The translations under genes and the position numbers were made by a program. DNA of 64,000 bases from Octopus vulgaris (Eukaryota), in NCBI GenBank assembly GCA_951406725.2, contig OX597827.1:63674001-63738000 (forward strand), written 5' to 3'. Positions 3,100 to 61,865 of the stretch are shown in pieces. A model generated the notes under the pieces. It made no database searches. It had not been told where the DNA came from and saw only the letters and a program-made list of their open reading frames with translations. Position 1 is the first letter of the stretch, and each line of letters begins with the position of its first letter.

Positions 3100-5160
3100 A
3101 TTTCCTTCCATTTCCTTTGATCTTTCTTTCATTCATTCATTTCATTCATTCATTTTACTGCTCCTTCATTTGTTTTTTTTTATTTCTTCATTCATTTTAT
3201 TCTTTTCATTCAGTGATTCATTCATTTATTCTCCCAGAAAAATCATTCAGAACTTTATTCATTCTTACAATCAATCATTTAGCTTTTGTTTGTAAGTTTT
3301 TTCATTCACTCATTCATTTTCTTAATTTCTTCTCCTTTCATTATTTTCATTTATTACTTCATGTAATTATTTCCTTCTATTACCTTTGATCTTTCATTCA
3401 TTCAGTTCATTCATATTGCTGCTCCTTCATTTAATTTTTTTTACTTCTTAATCCACATAATTCCTTTCTTTCATTGGTTCATTCATTTTTTTCTTCCAGT
3501 TTATAATTCATTTTTTCTTCCAGTTTATCATTCATTCTTACAATTATTTATCTTTTGTTCATGAGTTTAGTTCATTCATTTTTAAATGTTTCCTTCTTTC
3601 ATTTATTTAGTTCTCCATTTCATTCTCATAGATTTCTTCAATTAGTCATTTTTTCATGTAGCTGTCTTGTCACTTATTCAATTTATTTCTTTTTCATTCA
3701 GTTACTCATTTTCATTGATCCATTCATGAATTCAGCTCATTCATTTATTGACTATTTCCTTCCTTCTTTCAATTATCTTGTGACCTTCTCATTACTTAAT
3801 CACACTACTTTTATTTTTATTCATTTATTCATTCTGTTTTTCATTCATTTCTGTTCTCTCTTTCACATTTATGAAATTATTTCACTCATTCACTCATCCG
3901 TTGATCATTTCATTCATTCATTCATTCATTCATATATTGACTAACAAATTCATTCATCTATTGAATGTTTCATTCATCCATTCATCTAATAATTATTTCA
4001 TTCATTCATTTATTGGTTAATTAATTCATTCATTAATTTATTGATTATTTCATTCAGTCACATTTTCATTTATATACTGAGTAATTCAGTCAGTTATTAA
4101 TTGATAATTATCATTCATTCCTTTATCTATTAATTATCTATTTATGCTCCAGCATGACCACAGTCACAGGGCTGAAACAAATAAAAGAATAAAAGAATTT
4201 ATTGATTATTTCACTCATTCCTCTATTGAATATTATCATTCATTCATCTATCTTTTAATAATTTCATTCATTTATCGATTATTTCATTCTGTTAATTTAT
4301 CTCATTGTTTCCTTCATTCATCAGTCAATTATTTCATTCACTCATTCCTCTATTGAATATTATCATTCATTCATCTATCTTTTAATAATTTCATTCATTT
4401 ATCGATTATTTCATTCTGTTAATTTATCTCATTGTTTCCTTCATTCATCAGTCAATTATTTCATTCACTCATTCCTCTATTGAATATTATCATTCATTCA
4501 TCTATCTTTTAATAATTTCATTCATTTATCGATTATTTCATTCTGTTAATTTATCTCGTTATTGTTTCCTTCATTCATCAGTCAATTATTTCATTCACTC
4601 ATTCCTCTATTGAATATTATCATTCATTCATCTATCTTTTAATAATTTCATTCATTTATCAATTATTTCATTCTGTTCATTTATCTCGTTATTGTTTCCT
4701 TCATTCATCAGTCAATTATTTCATTCACTCATTCCTCTATTGAATATTATCATTCATTCATCTATCTTTTAATAATTTCATTCATTTATCAATTATTTCA
4801 TTCTGTTCATTTATCTCGTTATTGTTTCCTTCATTCATCAGTGAATTATTTCATTCATTCATTCATTCATCTATTGATTATTATCATTCATTCATTTATC
4901 TATTGATAATTTCATTCAATTTTTTCATGTTTTCATTCATTCATCTTGTGATTACATCATTTCATTCATCTATTCATTATTTAATTCTTTCATCTATTTA
5001 TTATTTTATCCATTCGTTATTATCAATCTTTCTTTCACCTATATATTTGTCCATTTATTGCTATTTTTCATTCAATTTTCTTTCTTTTTGGGTTTATCCA
5101 CTAATTTGGAGATTTTTCATTCCTTCTTCATTTGGAGATTCATTCATTCCTTCTTCTAAT
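3100..5160. repeat. Degenerate (TTCA)n-rich low-complexity domain
   Basis: ttcattca motifs throughout about 2 kb. Confidence 0.85.
4212..4860. repeat. Tandem repeat of 5 near-identical 127-130-bp units
   Basis: Unit starts (cactcattcctctattg) at 4212, 4339, 4466, 4596 and 4726. Confidence 0.9.
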
Positions 5161-50378: not shown

Positions 50379-51037
50379 ATATTTTACTTTGATAGGTTTC
50401 GGCCATTATTGGCCCAGGCCATGTCTAACTAATAGCACCACCTGGTGAAGTCTTTCAAGTCAGAATTTGGGCACTATGGCCCACTCAAGTAGAGAAGGTG
50501 CTTCGACTTTTTGATACCTTGTATTGTGTGGGGAGACCACAGTGGACAACAGTATTCAAGGTGGGGTCGGGCAAAAGTGGAGAAGAGAAGGATAATGGTG
50601 TGGATATCTCTCGACTGGAAAGTTCTGAGAATCCAGGAACACATTCTGCGGGCCATGTCAACTTTGGTGTTTATATGAGTGGCCCAGCTTACGTTGTTGT
50701 CCACAATTACTCCCAAGTCTCTGATGTTGTTGGACGCCGCGAGAGTTTCACCTGAAGGAAGGGAGTATGGGAGTTTCAGGGCATCCTCTTTTCCAAAGTG
50801 GATTAGCTCAAATTTATCCTCGTTCAGCAGCATATTGTTTTTTTCTGCCCATTGGATAACAGCCAGTAGATCTGACTGAAGGCATGTCCGGTCACTCGCC
50901 TCATTTATGACCTTCTGTAGCTTGGAGTCATCTGCAAAGATTTTTATGTTGCTGTGCTTGATGATGTCATTAATGTCATTAATGTAAATGATGAAAAGAA
51001 GTGGGCCCAGCACAGTGCCTTGCGGAACGCCACTACT
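50378..51037 (-). pseudogene. CR1-clade reverse transcriptase fragment, 5'-truncated and apparently internally deleted, with 3' tail
   Basis: [21 protein letters not shown]...KIFADDSKL...RDLGVIVD...RPHLEYCCPLWSP, stop-free for about 180 codons; homology breaks near 50500. Confidence 0.9.
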
Positions 51038-51070
51038 GACTATATATATATTTATATTTATATTTATATT

Positions 51071-51108
<38 letters not shown>

Positions 51109-51166
51109 CATACATACATACATACATGTAGATGTTTGCATACATATATATATGTGTGAGTGTGTA

Positions 51167-51200
<34 letters not shown>

Positions 51201-51948: not shown

Positions 51949-52054
51949 ATATAGTTAATCCAAACATGAAAACACAAAGAGAAAACATAACAACGCAAGG
52001 ACGTGGAACAAATATAGTATTATTGGACGCTCAGGAAGGAAGGGAAGAAGGAGG

Positions 52055-52089
52055 GTTTAACGTTTCGAGCGGCGCTCTTCGTCAGAAAC
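52055..52089 (-). ncRNA. Minimal type-I hammerhead with intact core (family H1, element about 51950-52165)
   Basis: GTTT CTGACGA A GAGC gcc GCTC GAAA CGT T AAAC. Confidence 0.7.
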
Positions 52090-53248
52090 ATAGGAAAAGG
52101 AAAGATCAAGAGAAGGGAAGATGGAGGAAAAAATATCGCCAACGGTACACACACAGTCACATTTTGAATGTATTGATAGAGATGGTAAGACAACAAAAGA
52201 ATGAAAGAGACCTCGATATTATGTAAATGACTACATATATAAGAATAACTTATATTTATATTTAAATATCACGTGATCACGTGACCGACCAGGCTATCAG
52301 ATGTTGTTACGCATCGCTGGTCACGATGCACTTCGCATTGTTTTAGCCTTCAAATGACGCCACCCCGCTGGCTAAGCGAGCAAGCCAATATTTAAATATA
52401 TATATATATATATATGTAGTCATTTACATAATATCGATGCAGATATATTGTATGATATAGAAGATATAGAAGGCTTGCTTTTCAGATCAACAGAATAATA
52501 TGGTTACATGAATTTGTCAGGAGCTGGAGTTGTCAGGAGCTGGCAAGGCAGAGGACTACACCAAGTTCCAGTGTCTGTTTTGGCATGGTTATTACAGCCG
52601 GATGCCTTACTAATACCAACCACTTTACAGAGTGGACTGGCAAGGTCCCTTTTTGGCATGCCTTTAGCACAACAGCACCACAATGCCACCGTGAACAATG
52701 ACAACAACAGTGATGATGATGATGATGATGACGATTATGTTGTATGTCCCTAGCAGAACTGCAAAGCTAATTCTGTGCTGCCTGTGTTTAAGAGAACAAT
52801 CGAGTGAGTGGTGGCTTTACTCAAAATCTAAGTTTCAGACATCACGTATGCATACATGCAAGCATCTATGTAATGTATGTACATATGCAAATATGTGTTT
52901 GTGTTTGTGTGTATATATTTCTGAATATGCAAATATTGCTGCAGATGTAAGATGATGTATAAAAAATTGTATAATCTTCTTAGCACAAGTAAGAAAACAT
53001 TATCCGTTGTCATTAGGCATGGCAACTCTGTTTAGATTTATGCATTAGCACATTCATACATTACACACACAAACCTACATGCATATTTGTATGCTCATAA
53101 TACAAATACACATAGACATGCATACACACACACACATACACACACAGAGTACATATACACAAACAAAAATAATATATTACTGAATACATTATCCTGTTTT
53201 GAATTTTGCTGAGCTTGCTCTTAGTCATGCTAAATTATCTATATATAT

Positions 53249-54180: not shown

Positions 54181-54215
54181 CGGTTTCAGGGATGATTGTC
54201 CCCTCATCAGAAAAC
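54181..54215 (-). ncRNA. Hammerhead motif truncated in stem III
   Basis: GTTTT CTGATGA GGGGA caatca TCCCT GAAA CCG, with no UH or stem I partner. Confidence 0.5.
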
Positions 54216-54882: not shown

Positions 54883-55416
54883 CTATGTATGCATATGTAT
54901 ATGTATATATATGTATATATTTGTGTGTCTTTGTTTGAGTGCATGTGGCAGTAGATTATCAGGATATAACATCAATAGTCTTCTTAATTTGCTTATAAAA
55001 TATCAGTCTGTCACATAATTAAATAGTAAATATTTATATAGAACACAGTATAAAGTAAAACTTGCGACTGTAGATTTATACCCATTATCTATGTTTCGTT
55101 TATTATAACCTTGATAAACCTTTATCATTGTAACTGCTGTTCATAACTGTTGGTTTTTCTCTTCAACGTAAGTTAAAATTTCCTAAAAGCATTTGCATCC
55201 ATCTTGTGATTGACCCAAAGTTGAATCAAAGCCAACACATGAAATATTGCAGCTTATTCTTAAAATTGAGTATAAGTCAAATCCTACACATTAAATGGGA
55301 ATTCTGTGGGTTCAGAACAATGTTAACCATCTAGTCATCCTTAAGGATGACCAATAACTATTGTGATGACTTTGTTTAAATTGAAGAAGTGTTGCATACT
55401 TTCAACAACACTCTCT

Positions 55417-55650
55417 TATTTCTTTATTGCCCACAAGGGGCTAAACATAGATGGGACAAACAAGGACAGACAAATGGATTAAGCCGATTATATCGATCCC
55501 AGTGTGTAACTGGTACTTAATTTATCGACCCTGAAAGGATGAAAGACAAAGTTGACCTCCAACGAATTTGAACTCAGAACGTAAAAACAGACGAAATACT
55601 GCTAAGCATTTTGCCCGGTGTGCTAACATTTCTGCCGGCTTGCTGCCTTA
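55417..55650 (-). mobile_element. SINE family B
   Basis: Reverse complement of the B consensus. Confidence 0.85.
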
Positions 55651-56896: not shown

Positions 56897-57501
56897 TGTT
56901 ATCCTGAGGTTTAGCAGCCACAAGTCTTGTCAAATTTCAAGAATCTTTTCTCAAGATGCTTACAGAATTCAGCTATACATTATTCTGCAACTGGAAAATA
57001 CAGAACTCAATTCCAGTATCCCTCCATGTCAGTTTGGGCATTGAGGCGAGTGCACCAGTTATCATGGGAACAGTTGTACCTTTGTTTTCCATCAAATAGT
57101 CATACACAGTTCAGTGATAAGTGATATTGCTACAGCCTAAGTTGAACAGAATCAAATACTTCATCCTTTGTTCCATTCACAATGGCAGGGCTGTTATAGT
57201 TAACAAACCAGACATTGTTCCTAAACAATGGAAAAGTAATCTCACAATATTTAGGTGTATTCCTGTTATTTCCTACATAAACTGTGTCATTGAGCGCTGA
57301 TTCTGTGAAGTATGTGATGTGTGAGTTGTGTTATTTTATTGTGCAGTGATTGTGTGACTGATTTTATAGATTGTATGTGTTTTTATATGTCGGTGCATAG
57401 ACTATAATGTGTGTGTGTGTTGTAATATTATATTGAAAGTGTTATGGGTTAACACTGGAAGCAAAAAACATCTGCAGAAAGTAATACATAGATGTGTATA
57501 A

Positions 57502-57732
57502 GGCGGCGAGCTGGCAGAAACGTTAGCGTACTGGGCGAAATGCTTAGCGGTATTTCGTCTGCTGTTACGATCTGAGTTCAAATTCCGCCAAGGTCGACTT
57601 TGCCTTTCATCCTTTCAGGGTTGATAAATTAAGTACCAGTTACGCACTGGGGTCAATTTAATCAACTTAATCCCTTTGTCTGTCCTTGTTTGTCCCCTCT
57701 ATGCTTATCCCCTTGTGAGCAATAAAGAAATA
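57502..57732 (+). mobile_element. SINE family B with 20-bp TSD
   Basis: agaaagtaataca.agatgt at 57476-57495 and 57733-57752. Confidence 0.9.
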
Positions 57733-58130
57733 AGAAAGTAATACACAGATGTTTTTACAACATTTGGGTTAACAAAAGTCTGCTATAACCAAATGTTTGT
57801 GTACCTGCAGGGGCCACAGACCCTACTAATATTAGGGTTGACAAACACAGATGCACAAACATACACACACACACACACACAGAGAAATACATGCACACAA
57901 ATACACACACACACATATATACAACAGGCTTCTTTCAGTTTCCGTCTACCAAATCCACTCACAAGGCTTTGGTCACCTATTGCACCTGTACAGGTAATGT
58001 TGATTTGATGGAGGGAGTGAGCTTATGTGTACACAGACATTTGATCACTATAAACAAATCGTATGTGTGGTTGTTCGGTAAGAAATTGTCGAACCCTCAT
58101 ACATCATCTAATGACAGGAGAATTCATTAT

Positions 58131-58175
<45 letters not shown>

Positions 58176-58180
<5 letters not shown>

Positions 58181-58583
58181 TTATTAGTGAATTGAAGAAA
58201 TGGAGTTGAACGAAGATTGAACAGAATTCCTTTTATTGCATTCTACACATGCTTTGCTGCGCCTCTGTTCTGTTTTGTTCTGCCAACGGAATTCCTATTT
58301 TTTTCCTGAAGAGAAAGCCACAATATGGTATCCTTATTTAATCAGAATTTGGAAAATTGTGGCTTTTGAAACATATGTAGAATGCAATAAAAGGAATTCT
58401 GTTCAATCTTCGTTCAACTCCATTTCTTCAATTCACTAATAATACTAAAATTCAATTATCCGCACCAACGCACGGTTGCAACACCAAAAGGTTTTATCTC
58501 CAACCGTGCTTTCTTCTGCTGTGATTTTTGATACCAAGGTATCGGTTAAACTTTTGATTAATCTGCAACAAGATTATTCATCT

Positions 58584-58590
<7 letters not shown>
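58176..58590 (+). mobile_element. Penelope/retrozyme-like element: 76-bp inverted repeat around an intact hammerhead
   Basis: Arms 58176-58251 and 58372-58447 (1 mismatch seen); bounded by (TA)n on both sides. Confidence 0.7.
58303..58382 (+). ncRNA. Type-I hammerhead ribozyme with intact core
   Basis: TTC CTGAAGA GAAAGCCACAAT..ATTGTGGCTTTT GAAA CATATGT A GAA; 12-bp stem II; palindromic stem III; predicted cleavage after 58379. Confidence 0.75.
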
Positions 58591-58618
<28 letters not shown>

Positions 58619-59122: not shown

Positions 59123-60010
59123 CATACATACATCCATATATACAATACCCGCTCTGACGTGGATACAGTCCAGGAACTGAAACAAATAAGAGTGGAGGAG
59201 TTTGCATATATATATGCGTGTGAATGGTTGCGTGTACGCATATGAGTATTTAGAGACGTGTGTACGTGCTTGCATGCATGTGTGTTTGTGTGTGCGTGCG
59301 TGCGTGCGTGTGTGTGTGTGTGTGTGTATGTCTTGGTATATGACTAAACTGTAGCATTTGTTAAAAACCAACCATTCTCTGCTTTTAGTGCAATAGCTTC
59401 CAGTGAAAATGTTGTAGTTGTTGTTTGGTGGCGGTGGCGGCAGTGGTGGCGATGGTGGCAGTAATGGCGGTAGAGATGGTGGAGGTGGCGGTGGTGGTGG
59501 TGGTGGTGGTGGTGGGGATACTCACTGATGTGCTGGTAATGATACAGTCTTAATGATGGTGCCCGTGGCTTTGACTAACTATAATGGCATTGAGGTGGTC
59601 GCGGATGCTTTTGGATGTGTTTGAATGTGGTGGAGGTGCGTGTCAGCAGTAGAGGTGTTTTGTTGTGATATTGGATTATAGGAGGTTGCTGGTGGATAGT
59701 AATGGTGGTGGTGGTGGCGGTGGTGGTGGTGGTGGGGTGTTGGAGACTGAGTGCTGTTCGTATAATGAAGTGGGTGTTTATGTTATTGATGTGGAGATGG
59801 CACTGTGGGGGGGGATGCTGTCTGTGGTAATATGTTGTGATAATACGGCAGCTAGACGTGGAGGTAAACGAAGCTAACTGTGCTTACAGATGGGTGAGCT
59901 GTGGTTAATAACAGTCTCAAATTTTTGCCATAAGGCCAGGGAAGATCAGGTGAGGTGGGTAAGTTGATTACTGGTACTTATTTTACCAATCTATCAAAAC
60001 GATGAAAGGC

Positions 60011-60463
60011 AGAGATGATCATGCTGGTCAAAATGTAAAAACCAGAGATGACCCTGGTGGTCAAAATGTAAAGTCCAGAGATGACCCTGGTGGTCAAAAT
60101 GTAAAAACCAGAGATGACCAAGGTGGTCAAAATGTAAAGTCCAGAGATGACAATGGTGGTCAAAATGTAAAGACCAGCGATGACCATGGTGGTCAAAATG
60201 TAAAGGCCAGAGATGACCATGGTGGTCAAAGTGTAAAGACCAGAGATGACTATGGTGGTCAAAGTGTAAAGACCAGAGATGACCATGGTGGTCAAAATGT
60301 AAAGACCAGAGATGACCATGGTGGTCAAAGTGTAAAGACCAGAGATGACTATGGTGGTCAAAATGTAAAGACCAGAGATGACCATGGTGGTCAAAATGTA
60401 AAGACCAGAGATGACCATGGTGGTCAAAATGTAAAGACCAGAGATGACCATGGTGGTCAAAAT
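60011..60463. repeat. 33-bp minisatellite (~14 copies) inside a minus-strand SINE B relic
   Basis: Unit agagatgaccatggtggtcaaaatgtaaagacc; flanks gatgaaaggc and gctaagcattttgcc...tctgccagctcactgcc. Confidence 0.9.
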
Positions 60464-60805
60464 GCCGCTAAGCATTTTGCCCTGCACATACTAATGGTTC
60501 TGCCAGCTCACTGCCTTAAGACCTGTAGTAATATCAGCTTCAGATTTTGCCACAAAGCCAGCAAGATCAGAGGAGGCGGGTAAATCAATTATATCAACCC
60601 CTGTGTGCTCAACTGGTACTTATTTTATTGACCCTGCAAAATGATGAAAAGCAGAGTTGATCTTCATGGAATCTGAGCTCAGAACACAAAGACAGATGAA
60701 ATGGAACTAAGCATACCCAGCATGCACCAATGATTTTACCAGCTTGCTGCTTTAAGACTTGAGGTAATATTGGTTTTAAACTTTGGTGCCAGGCCTGCAA
60801 GTATA

Positions 60806-61162: not shown

Positions 61163-61184
61163 AGGCTAATTGTGGTATTGTTCA

Positions 61185-61865
61185 AGTTAACTATGGTAAT
61201 TGTGACCCCAGCTGTGGTAACAAATAGGTGAGCTAGCCATAGTAATAGGTAAGTAAGTTATTGTAATTGCATACCAAGCTTTGGTAACAGATGGGTAAGC
61301 TATGGTAATAGTAATGCTAGTCATGGTAATAAGCAAGTTAGCTGTGGTAATAGGATGATTACCTGTGGTAACAGGTGGGTGAGCTATGGTAATAATAAGG
61401 CTAGTCATGGTAATAGGCAAGTTAACTGTGGTAATGATGAGGTTACCTATGGTAACAGACGGGGGAACTACAGTGATAGTAAGGCTAGCTATGGTACTAG
61501 GCAGGTTAGCTGTGGTAATGATGAGGTTACCTATGGTAACAGATGAAGAGCTACGGTAATAGTAAGGTTAGCTATGGTAATAGGCAAGTTAGCTGTTGTA
61601 ATAATGAGTCTGCCTGTGGTAACAGATGGGTGAGCTATGGTAACAGAAAGGCTAACAGTGGTAATGGGCAAAAATAGCTATGGTAATAGTGAAGCTAACT
61701 ATGGTAACCAATCATAATAATGGCTGTGAAATTATTATCAAAGCTAGTAGGGCTAGCTCTGTTAATAATGGCAACCGCTGTGGTAATTGCACAGCTAGCT
61801 ATAGTAACATCAAACCTAACTGTGGTAATATATCCTGATTATAGTGGAGTTGGTCATGGTAATAT
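61185..61865. repeat. Degenerate ~21-bp minisatellite (ggtaataggcaagttagctgt)
   Basis: The tggtaa motif recurs at about 21-bp spacing for roughly 30 units. Confidence 0.8.

Follow-up and report, generated by a model that had tools for sequence, protein, structure and literature searches.

Penelope-like elements typically carry an inverted, 5′-truncated copy of themselves next to their 5′ end, are biased towards microsatellites and bear hammerhead motifs in their pseudo-LTRs (PMC8557442), and head-to-head inverted pseudo-LTRs with palindromic junctions have been read as products of self-priming (PMC3846280, Arkhipova 2013). Their hammerheads are described as having a long stem II, a short stem I and a palindromic stem III, and motif pairs on opposite strands have been noted (PMC4209133, Cervera and de la Pena 2014). 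When tested alone, these hammerheads were weak or inactive (PMC11167929, PMC4209133). In PMC11167929, cleavage was dispensable for insertion in vitro and no RNA-seq ends were reported at the cut site, and the role of Penelope hammerheads is stated to be unclear (PMC8557442, Craig 2021). Coleoid cephalopods are rich in Penelope families (PMC8967140). In retrozymes, the units are arranged in tandem (PMC7229834; bioRxiv 10.64898/2026.07.22.740005).

Here we describe an insert in a 64-kb stretch of AT-rich, microsatellite-dense DNA of animal type (the window). As a single copy it matters little, since its inverted layout and its hammerhead have both already been published for Penelope-like elements. 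What it offers is a clean case of inversion formation and a way into a high-copy family whose many junctions lend themselves to counting by position. If junctions were truly enriched immediately 3′ of the cut, this would provide in vivo evidence of hammerhead cleavage and address what Penelope hammerheads do. The literature we consulted contained no account of the family or of junction clustering at the cut; the family may be among the hammerheads catalogued in the supplements to PMC4209133 and PMC8557442.

Anatomy of the insert

The insert is 410 bp long, encodes no protein and is set in a TA microsatellite, with a left (TA)n run at 58140–58177 and a right one at 58587–58615; TA on both sides agrees with the bias of Penelope-like elements for microsatellite or AT-rich targets. 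Its main part is a direct, plus-strand copy of the 3′ end of a repeat family (58250–58589), delimited by contig alignment and 5′-truncated at 58250. In front of it stands a left arm on the minus strand (58176–58251), an inverted copy of 58372–58447. The latter, the right arm, lies on the plus strand inside the direct copy and is the original of the duplicated piece. The 76-bp inverted repeat that had been noticed in the preliminary description is indeed real: 75 of 76 positions pair, with 72 bp of perfect pairing (58176–58247 with 58376–58447) followed by a mismatch (58248/58375) and three further pairs. The outermost 2 bp of the arms also belong to the TA run, the final two bases of the left run being common to the inverted arm. 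For the entire element, the predicted folding energy is −172 kcal/mol (z = −20.6), a value that none of 100 shuffles reached. The head-to-head junction (58250–58254, plus strand) was identified by base comparison and by contig loose ends before 58250 and 58253. Its microhomology is perfect over 2 bases, and extends to 4 of 5 bases in the insert copy and to 5 of 5 with an allele from another copy (run X2).

No ORF with a reverse transcriptase (RT) or GIY-YIG domain is present in the insert copy, and a Pfam search of the 203 stop-to-stop frames of at least 60 aa that passed the complexity filter revealed neither a Penelope ORF nor a clear host gene in the window. Protein searches with the one open frame of the insert gave no match among longer or similar-length proteins, which is weak evidence. 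Pattern scans for the family, one of them with an upstream motif, gave 0 matches in public metagenome contigs, viral contigs and prokaryote genomes. Within the window, blastn returned the inverted match of the element to itself and three short matches (E 0.26–0.91), with no second copy.

Elsewhere in the window, an RT fragment lies on the minus strand between TA runs (50477–51169; Pfam RVT_1, E 8.5e-11). We considered it as the element's own RT and rejected it as a separate, unrelated fragment; its motifs are presumably LINE-like and not of the Penelope type. The repeats of the window are, as we take it, similar to cephalopod SINEs. Tandem arrays of 33-bp and 21-bp units with open frames are found at 59911–60563 and 61169–61830, and a Pfam beta-solenoid match at 59963–60580 (E 5e-16) may be caused by repeat composition.

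The hammerhead motif

A type I hammerhead motif was found at 58303–58382 on the plus strand by a descriptor search and base-by-base folding. All core bases are present, with CUGAAGA at 58306–58312 and GAAA at 58368–58371. Stem II comprises 12 bp (58313–58324 with 58356–58367) and is closed by a loop of 31 nt, stem III consists of 2 bp and a palindromic tetraloop (palindrome ACATATGT at 58371–58378), and the proximal stem I has only 3 bp (58303–05/58380–82). The site is GUA, with the predicted cut after 58379. The core had been called perfect: the core bases, the 12-bp stem II and the palindromic stem III stand, but "perfect" does not, given the 3-bp stem I and a first stem II pair that is G-U in the insert instead of the conserved G10.1-C11.1. 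Since the family has C at 58367 in 60–74% of summed depth, which restores the canonical G10.1-C11.1 pair, the hammerhead of the insert is slightly decayed. We rejected the palindromic ACATATGT as a sign of selection in the insert: the family majority has CG at the centre of the palindromic stem III, the left arm is in a one-step state and the right arm shows one further transition.

The motif is far beyond chance. A strict descriptor (stem I of at least 3 bp, stem II of at least 8 bp, palindromic stem III) gave 0 matches in 300 shuffles of the 64-kb window, and 1 match in 300 shuffles when stem II was relaxed to at least 4 bp. In Rfam, no family reached the gathering score in the window and no hammerhead model was among the 24 weak matches around the site, for which the long loop II may account; weak matches to miRNA families at the site were rejected, being due to the hairpin only. 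Folding also predicted a distal extension of stem I (about 58288–58299 with 58386–58400; 58288–58400 overall, plus strand), which relies on the letters at 58291, 58393 and 58396. All three are minority letters in organism A, and that at 58291 is the majority in organism B; possibly, they are a subfamily trait. Directly 3′ of the predicted cut lies AATAAA (58386–58391, plus strand), which may be a poly(A) signal.

The sole other match to the strict descriptor in the window belongs to a second, unrelated and minimal hammerhead in another TA-flanked repeat (51952–52241, minus strand, core at 52085), with a stem I of 4 bp, an extra base before a 4-bp stem II and the palindrome ACGT. A perfect 29-bp inverted repeat (52213–52241 with 52409–52437) lies well apart from this core. 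Decayed hammerhead-like motifs at 54210 (−), 47597 (+) and 23819 (−) matched a loose scan and failed the strict descriptor. Furthermore, five CTGATGA...GAAA motifs without stem II, spaced 127–130 nt apart, occur within a tandem repeat at 4324–4841 on the minus strand.

The family in public contigs

Part of the stretch was contained in 20 of the 24 public runs listed, which represent three organisms and one metagenome with a small share. Four runs were taken into the contig alignment, three of them DNA-like (organisms A, B and C) and one a probable RNA run (X4), whereas a wastewater run with 0.07 of the words was left out; the contig evidence covers 40 of 66 variant rows, 24 of 128 loose-end rows and 32 of 3185 pieces. 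The DNA-like runs of A, B and C contributed 2009, 494 and 592 aligned contigs, respectively. All 30 bins were covered, and depth over the 3′ part was 18–42 times that over the 5′ spacer, a ratio that 5′ divergence may inflate. This abundance and 3′ bias, together with a defined 3′ end, indicate frequent 5′ truncation, as in Penelope-like elements.

Behind 58589, 14 contigs of run X1 and 8 of X2 continue for about 9 nt and then enter TA; judged by these loose ends, the direct copy ends about 9 nt before the commonest family 3′ end. The 3′ ends observed differ by about 9 nt and by about 150 nt, with 24 of 128 loose-end rows listed, and the optional tail of Penelope measures 30–40 bp. Before 58250, contigs of all three runs enter one ordinary, non-inverted sequence that is unrelated to the left arm. 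Since other copies thus continue upstream, the direct copy is 5′-truncated exactly at the junction at 58250. These two observations support the preliminary assignment to a Penelope-type element with an inverted, truncated piece. A 2–2.7-fold step in summed depth at about 58386 in the DNA runs was considered as evidence for truncation at the cut and set aside because the depth is high again at 58302–58329.

The same contigs bear on whether the arms could be the terminal inverted repeats of a MITE, which had been judged unlikely from the outset, or an artefact of assembly fold-back. Such origins would account for a long, near-perfect inverted repeat in a TA context, and none of the 32 of 3185 contig pieces listed spans the insert's own inversion junction. 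However, the right arm is internal: the family runs 140 nt past it, where the depth is highest, and in other copies unrelated sequence precedes 58250. Between the arms there is a one-base difference and each leads into a different flank, and the hammerhead motif is non-random. The MITE is therefore largely refuted, and we regard either origin as barely credible.

In 15 of the 40 variant rows listed (of 66), the letter of the insert is not the majority letter of X1, so that no fewer than 15 of about 340 positions depart from it. Sixteen of the 40 rows (near or above half in X1) were checked; 15 exceed half in X1, and 13 of these 15 letters do so in all three DNA runs. Within the arm interval, the right arm departs from the family majority at five positions, and four of these letters are common to both arms (58374, 58393, 58396 and 58445), the one at 58445 making up at most 0.5% of the depth in all three DNA-like runs. 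The shared minority letters imply either one template lineage or later homogenisation. As for age, a young insertion is possible, being compatible with the similarity of the arms. The "recent" insertion of the preliminary description is no more than loosely supported, given the 95% interval of 0.03–7.3% on the one difference in 74 bp and the 15 departures from the X1 majority.

To summarize, the insert is a shortened copy of an abundant animal repeat family that carries a hammerhead motif and an inverted duplicate of part of itself, the latter being likely a by-product of insertion and not a built-in switch. The family is likely of the Penelope type, an assignment that rests on structure, as the parent ORF was not found.

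Origin of the inverted arm

As described before, the right arm begins within stem III a few nucleotides 5′ of the predicted cut: its start at 58372 lies 8 nt from it. The inverted arm takes in 6–8 nt 5′ of the cut, and the direct copy reaches 130 nt 5′ of it. Since both pieces span the predicted cut, the template was presumably uncut or re-ligated, and if so, priming at a self-cleaved end does not explain the insert copy. Thus, of the earlier idea of fold-back priming near the self-cleaved end, the fold-back remains a good mechanism, whereas the self-cleaved end does not hold.

We propose, with slightly more confidence than doubt, that a 5′-truncated copy of the hammerhead family was inserted in the TA run and that its 76-bp arm formed when the new cDNA folded back on itself in the course of insertion. 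From the observed anatomy, family abundance, 3′ bias, truncation point, microhomology and shared rare alleles, we infer the following steps. The element's endonuclease would nick the TA run, and uncut (or re-ligated) RNA would be reverse transcribed from about 58589 through the hammerhead, with a stop at 58250. The 3′ end of the cDNA would then anneal to its own strand at 58369–58373 via 2–5 bases of microhomology, looping out about 115 nt, and, with its own cDNA as template, would grow by about 74 nt as far as 58446. Joining to the TA target would follow, over 2 bases common to both. The position of the arm in stem III would be wherever the microhomology happened to fall. Fold-back would account for the shared rare alleles, for the microhomology and for the outer end of the arm (58446/7), which stops about 150 nt before the 3′ end of the family, as an aborted second synthesis would.

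Several points weigh against fold-back, besides the missing ORF and the absence of a junction-spanning piece among the contig pieces listed. Two RNAs of a single donor, or gene conversion at a later time, would explain the shared alleles just as well. The microhomology of the insert copy is perfect for no more than 2 bases, and if it determined the landing site by chance alone, this would not explain why junctions of other copies seem to gather near the cut. Moreover, purified Penelope protein of Anolis cuts both strands, extends both and initiates internally with no need for homology (PMC11167929), which by analogy would favour a rival with two primers. In that case, reverse transcription would start from both nicked TA strands, from one at the 3′ end of the family and from the other internally at 58446/7, on one or two RNAs of the same donor; the inverted cDNA would stop at the base of the 12-bp stem II, and the two cDNAs would be joined head-to-head by microhomology. 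The inner end of the arm (58369–58374) adjoins stem II, which is predicted to be paired at P 0.5–1.0, and two other junctions stop at 58368 and 58372. The alternative 3′ ends described in PMC8557442 and PMC11167929, however, are 30–40 bp apart, compared with about 150 nt in the insert, and a loose end into TA at 58446 is absent among the 24 of 128 rows listed. Dual priming fits nearly as well as fold-back; overall, we consider it possible, though unlikely.

The inversion could also have arisen after insertion, by fold-back at a replication fork or break repair at the fragile TA run, unrelated to retrotransposition. The very rare letters common to both arms (58445) look as if they had been copied after mutation, and the left end adjoins about 38 bp of TA. 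On the other hand, the inner junction falls exactly where the direct copy is 5′-truncated, and nine other inversion junctions exist in the family, as is typical of Penelope insertions, which makes a later inversion distinctly improbable.

Inversion junctions in other copies

Among the 10 joints listed in the contigs, nine connect the left arm with the direct copy and therefore read as head-to-head inversions; one changes strand and is ambiguous. Relative to the cut, the inner ends of the inverted pieces lie at −12, −8, +7, +9, +9, +17, +41, +44 and +45, and the direct pieces start at −2, +6, +7, +8, +11, +21, +71, +137 and +180, six of the nine within −2 to +21. Near-perfect fold-backs make up five of the nine junctions, and three junctions fall on an AT-rich stretch. 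The joint from 58236 to 58387 is present in two runs from different organisms, and that from 58255 to 58517 might come from an allele of the insert's own locus that carries a deletion. The preliminary description had suggested examining whether breakpoints cluster at stem III. They do so in part, near the cut but not at stem III specifically: two of nine are at the core or stem III and seven of nine are 7–45 nt 3′ of the cut.

The inner end of the inverted piece lies within −12 to +45 of the cut in 9 of the 10 joints listed, a 59-nt part of 301 nt (p = 3.5e-6, if strand-changing joints are equally readily reported). Exactly this 59-nt part is made visible by the reference as same-strand joints, and sensitivity elsewhere is uncertain, so that detection may be biased; inside the visible part, the concentration of junctions is weak (p = 0.06). 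The joints have depths of 8–78 against 1e4–1e6, and library chimeras could yield them. We treat the clustering near the cut as a lead that detection bias or library chimeras may explain. Were it genuine, the family-wide 5′ truncations and the inversion junctions at the cut could record in vivo hammerhead cleavage that sets the 5′ ends of templates, with the cDNA running off and folding back, a reading that we find clearly doubtful. The insert would then be an exception, made from uncut RNA at the same hotspot.

Predicted folding and editing signals

To estimate the effect of the left arm, we compared predicted secondary structures; these fold costs take no account of tertiary contacts or dimers. 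The active hammerhead fold cost 4.7 kcal/mol without the left arm and 18.2 kcal/mol with it, a predicted suppression of 13.5 kcal/mol, in line with the earlier proposal that the duplex sequesters the ribozyme stems. In nascent plus-strand RNA ending at 58385 the cost was already 7.4 kcal/mol, and the predicted share of the active fold was 5e-4 even without the left arm. According to these predictions, the left arm in a plus-strand transcript would keep the ribozyme off as a side effect. Roles as a built-in off-switch and as an ADAR/Dicer substrate, also proposed before, find no support at the locus: the arm belongs to the insert copy alone and no transcript of the locus is shown. "Off-switch" would at most describe the hairpin of a dead copy, with no function established.

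In the probable RNA run, 28 of 61 places were T>C, compared with 8/35, 8/39 and 8/37 in the DNA runs (Fisher p 0.01–0.03). This excess could be a trace of A-to-I editing in transcripts of the family that come from the strand complementary to the hammerhead, at the level of the family and with the RNA status of the run being a guess.

The preliminary reading as a whole, with an RNA end made by self-cleavage, fold-back priming at that end and an arm that acts both as a built-in off-switch and as a dsRNA substrate, would agree with the start of the arm 8 nt from the cut, the predicted suppression, the positions of the direct pieces and fold-backs at the other junctions, and the T>C excess. Yet both pieces of the insert cross the cut site, other copies are devoid of the insert's arm, and the T>C excess is on the opposite strand, is family-level and comes from a run of guessed RNA status without matched DNA. 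We consider this reading highly improbable and retain fold-back of the cDNA on an uncut or re-ligated template.

At 58388, the T of AATAAA, three contigs of X4 carried T>C and the three DNA runs lacked it, possibly owing to antisense A-to-I editing of other copies. Beside the insert, two inverted SINE-like copies of 241 nt (55410–55650 and 57499–57739), 87% complementary and 1.8 kb apart, could possibly form a longer dsRNA.

Comparison with known systems

LINE-1 inversions made by twin priming are 5′ inversions joined by microhomology, in which a segment is inverted without duplication. The insert shares the 5′ inversion and the microhomology with them but differs in that its inverted piece duplicates sequence that is already present.

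With non-LTR retrozymes, as far as they are described in the sources cited above, the insert has in common that it is short, non-coding and low in GC, carries a type I hammerhead and is a probable Penelope derivative. Unlike these, it forms a single unit in the window and not a head-to-tail array, and the 3′ ends of the family enter TA and not a next unit; correspondingly, no joint that goes back, as in tandem units, was among the joints listed.

The hammerhead resembles the Penelope type I hammerheads described in PMC4209133 in its conserved core, long stem II, short stem I and palindromic stem III, and in the G10.1-C11.1 pair of the family. It differs from them in the size of stem II (12 bp with a loop II of 31 nt, compared with the 7–8 bp described there), in the absence of an extra base between positions 9 and 10.1, and in the G-U pair at 10.1-11.1.

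The closest match is with inverted, truncated pseudo-LTR insertions made by endonuclease-bearing Penelope-like elements. The insert differs from these in having no ORF and no parent found, in an inverted piece that ends about 150 nt and not 30–40 nt short of the 3′ end, and in a target duplication that is unreadable in TA. It shares with them the inverted, truncated piece at the 5′ end, the microhomology junction, the 5′ truncation, the microsatellite target and the 3′ hammerhead. Apart from the missing ORF, the insert appears to follow the Penelope insertion pattern on every structural point that its sequence allowed us to compare.
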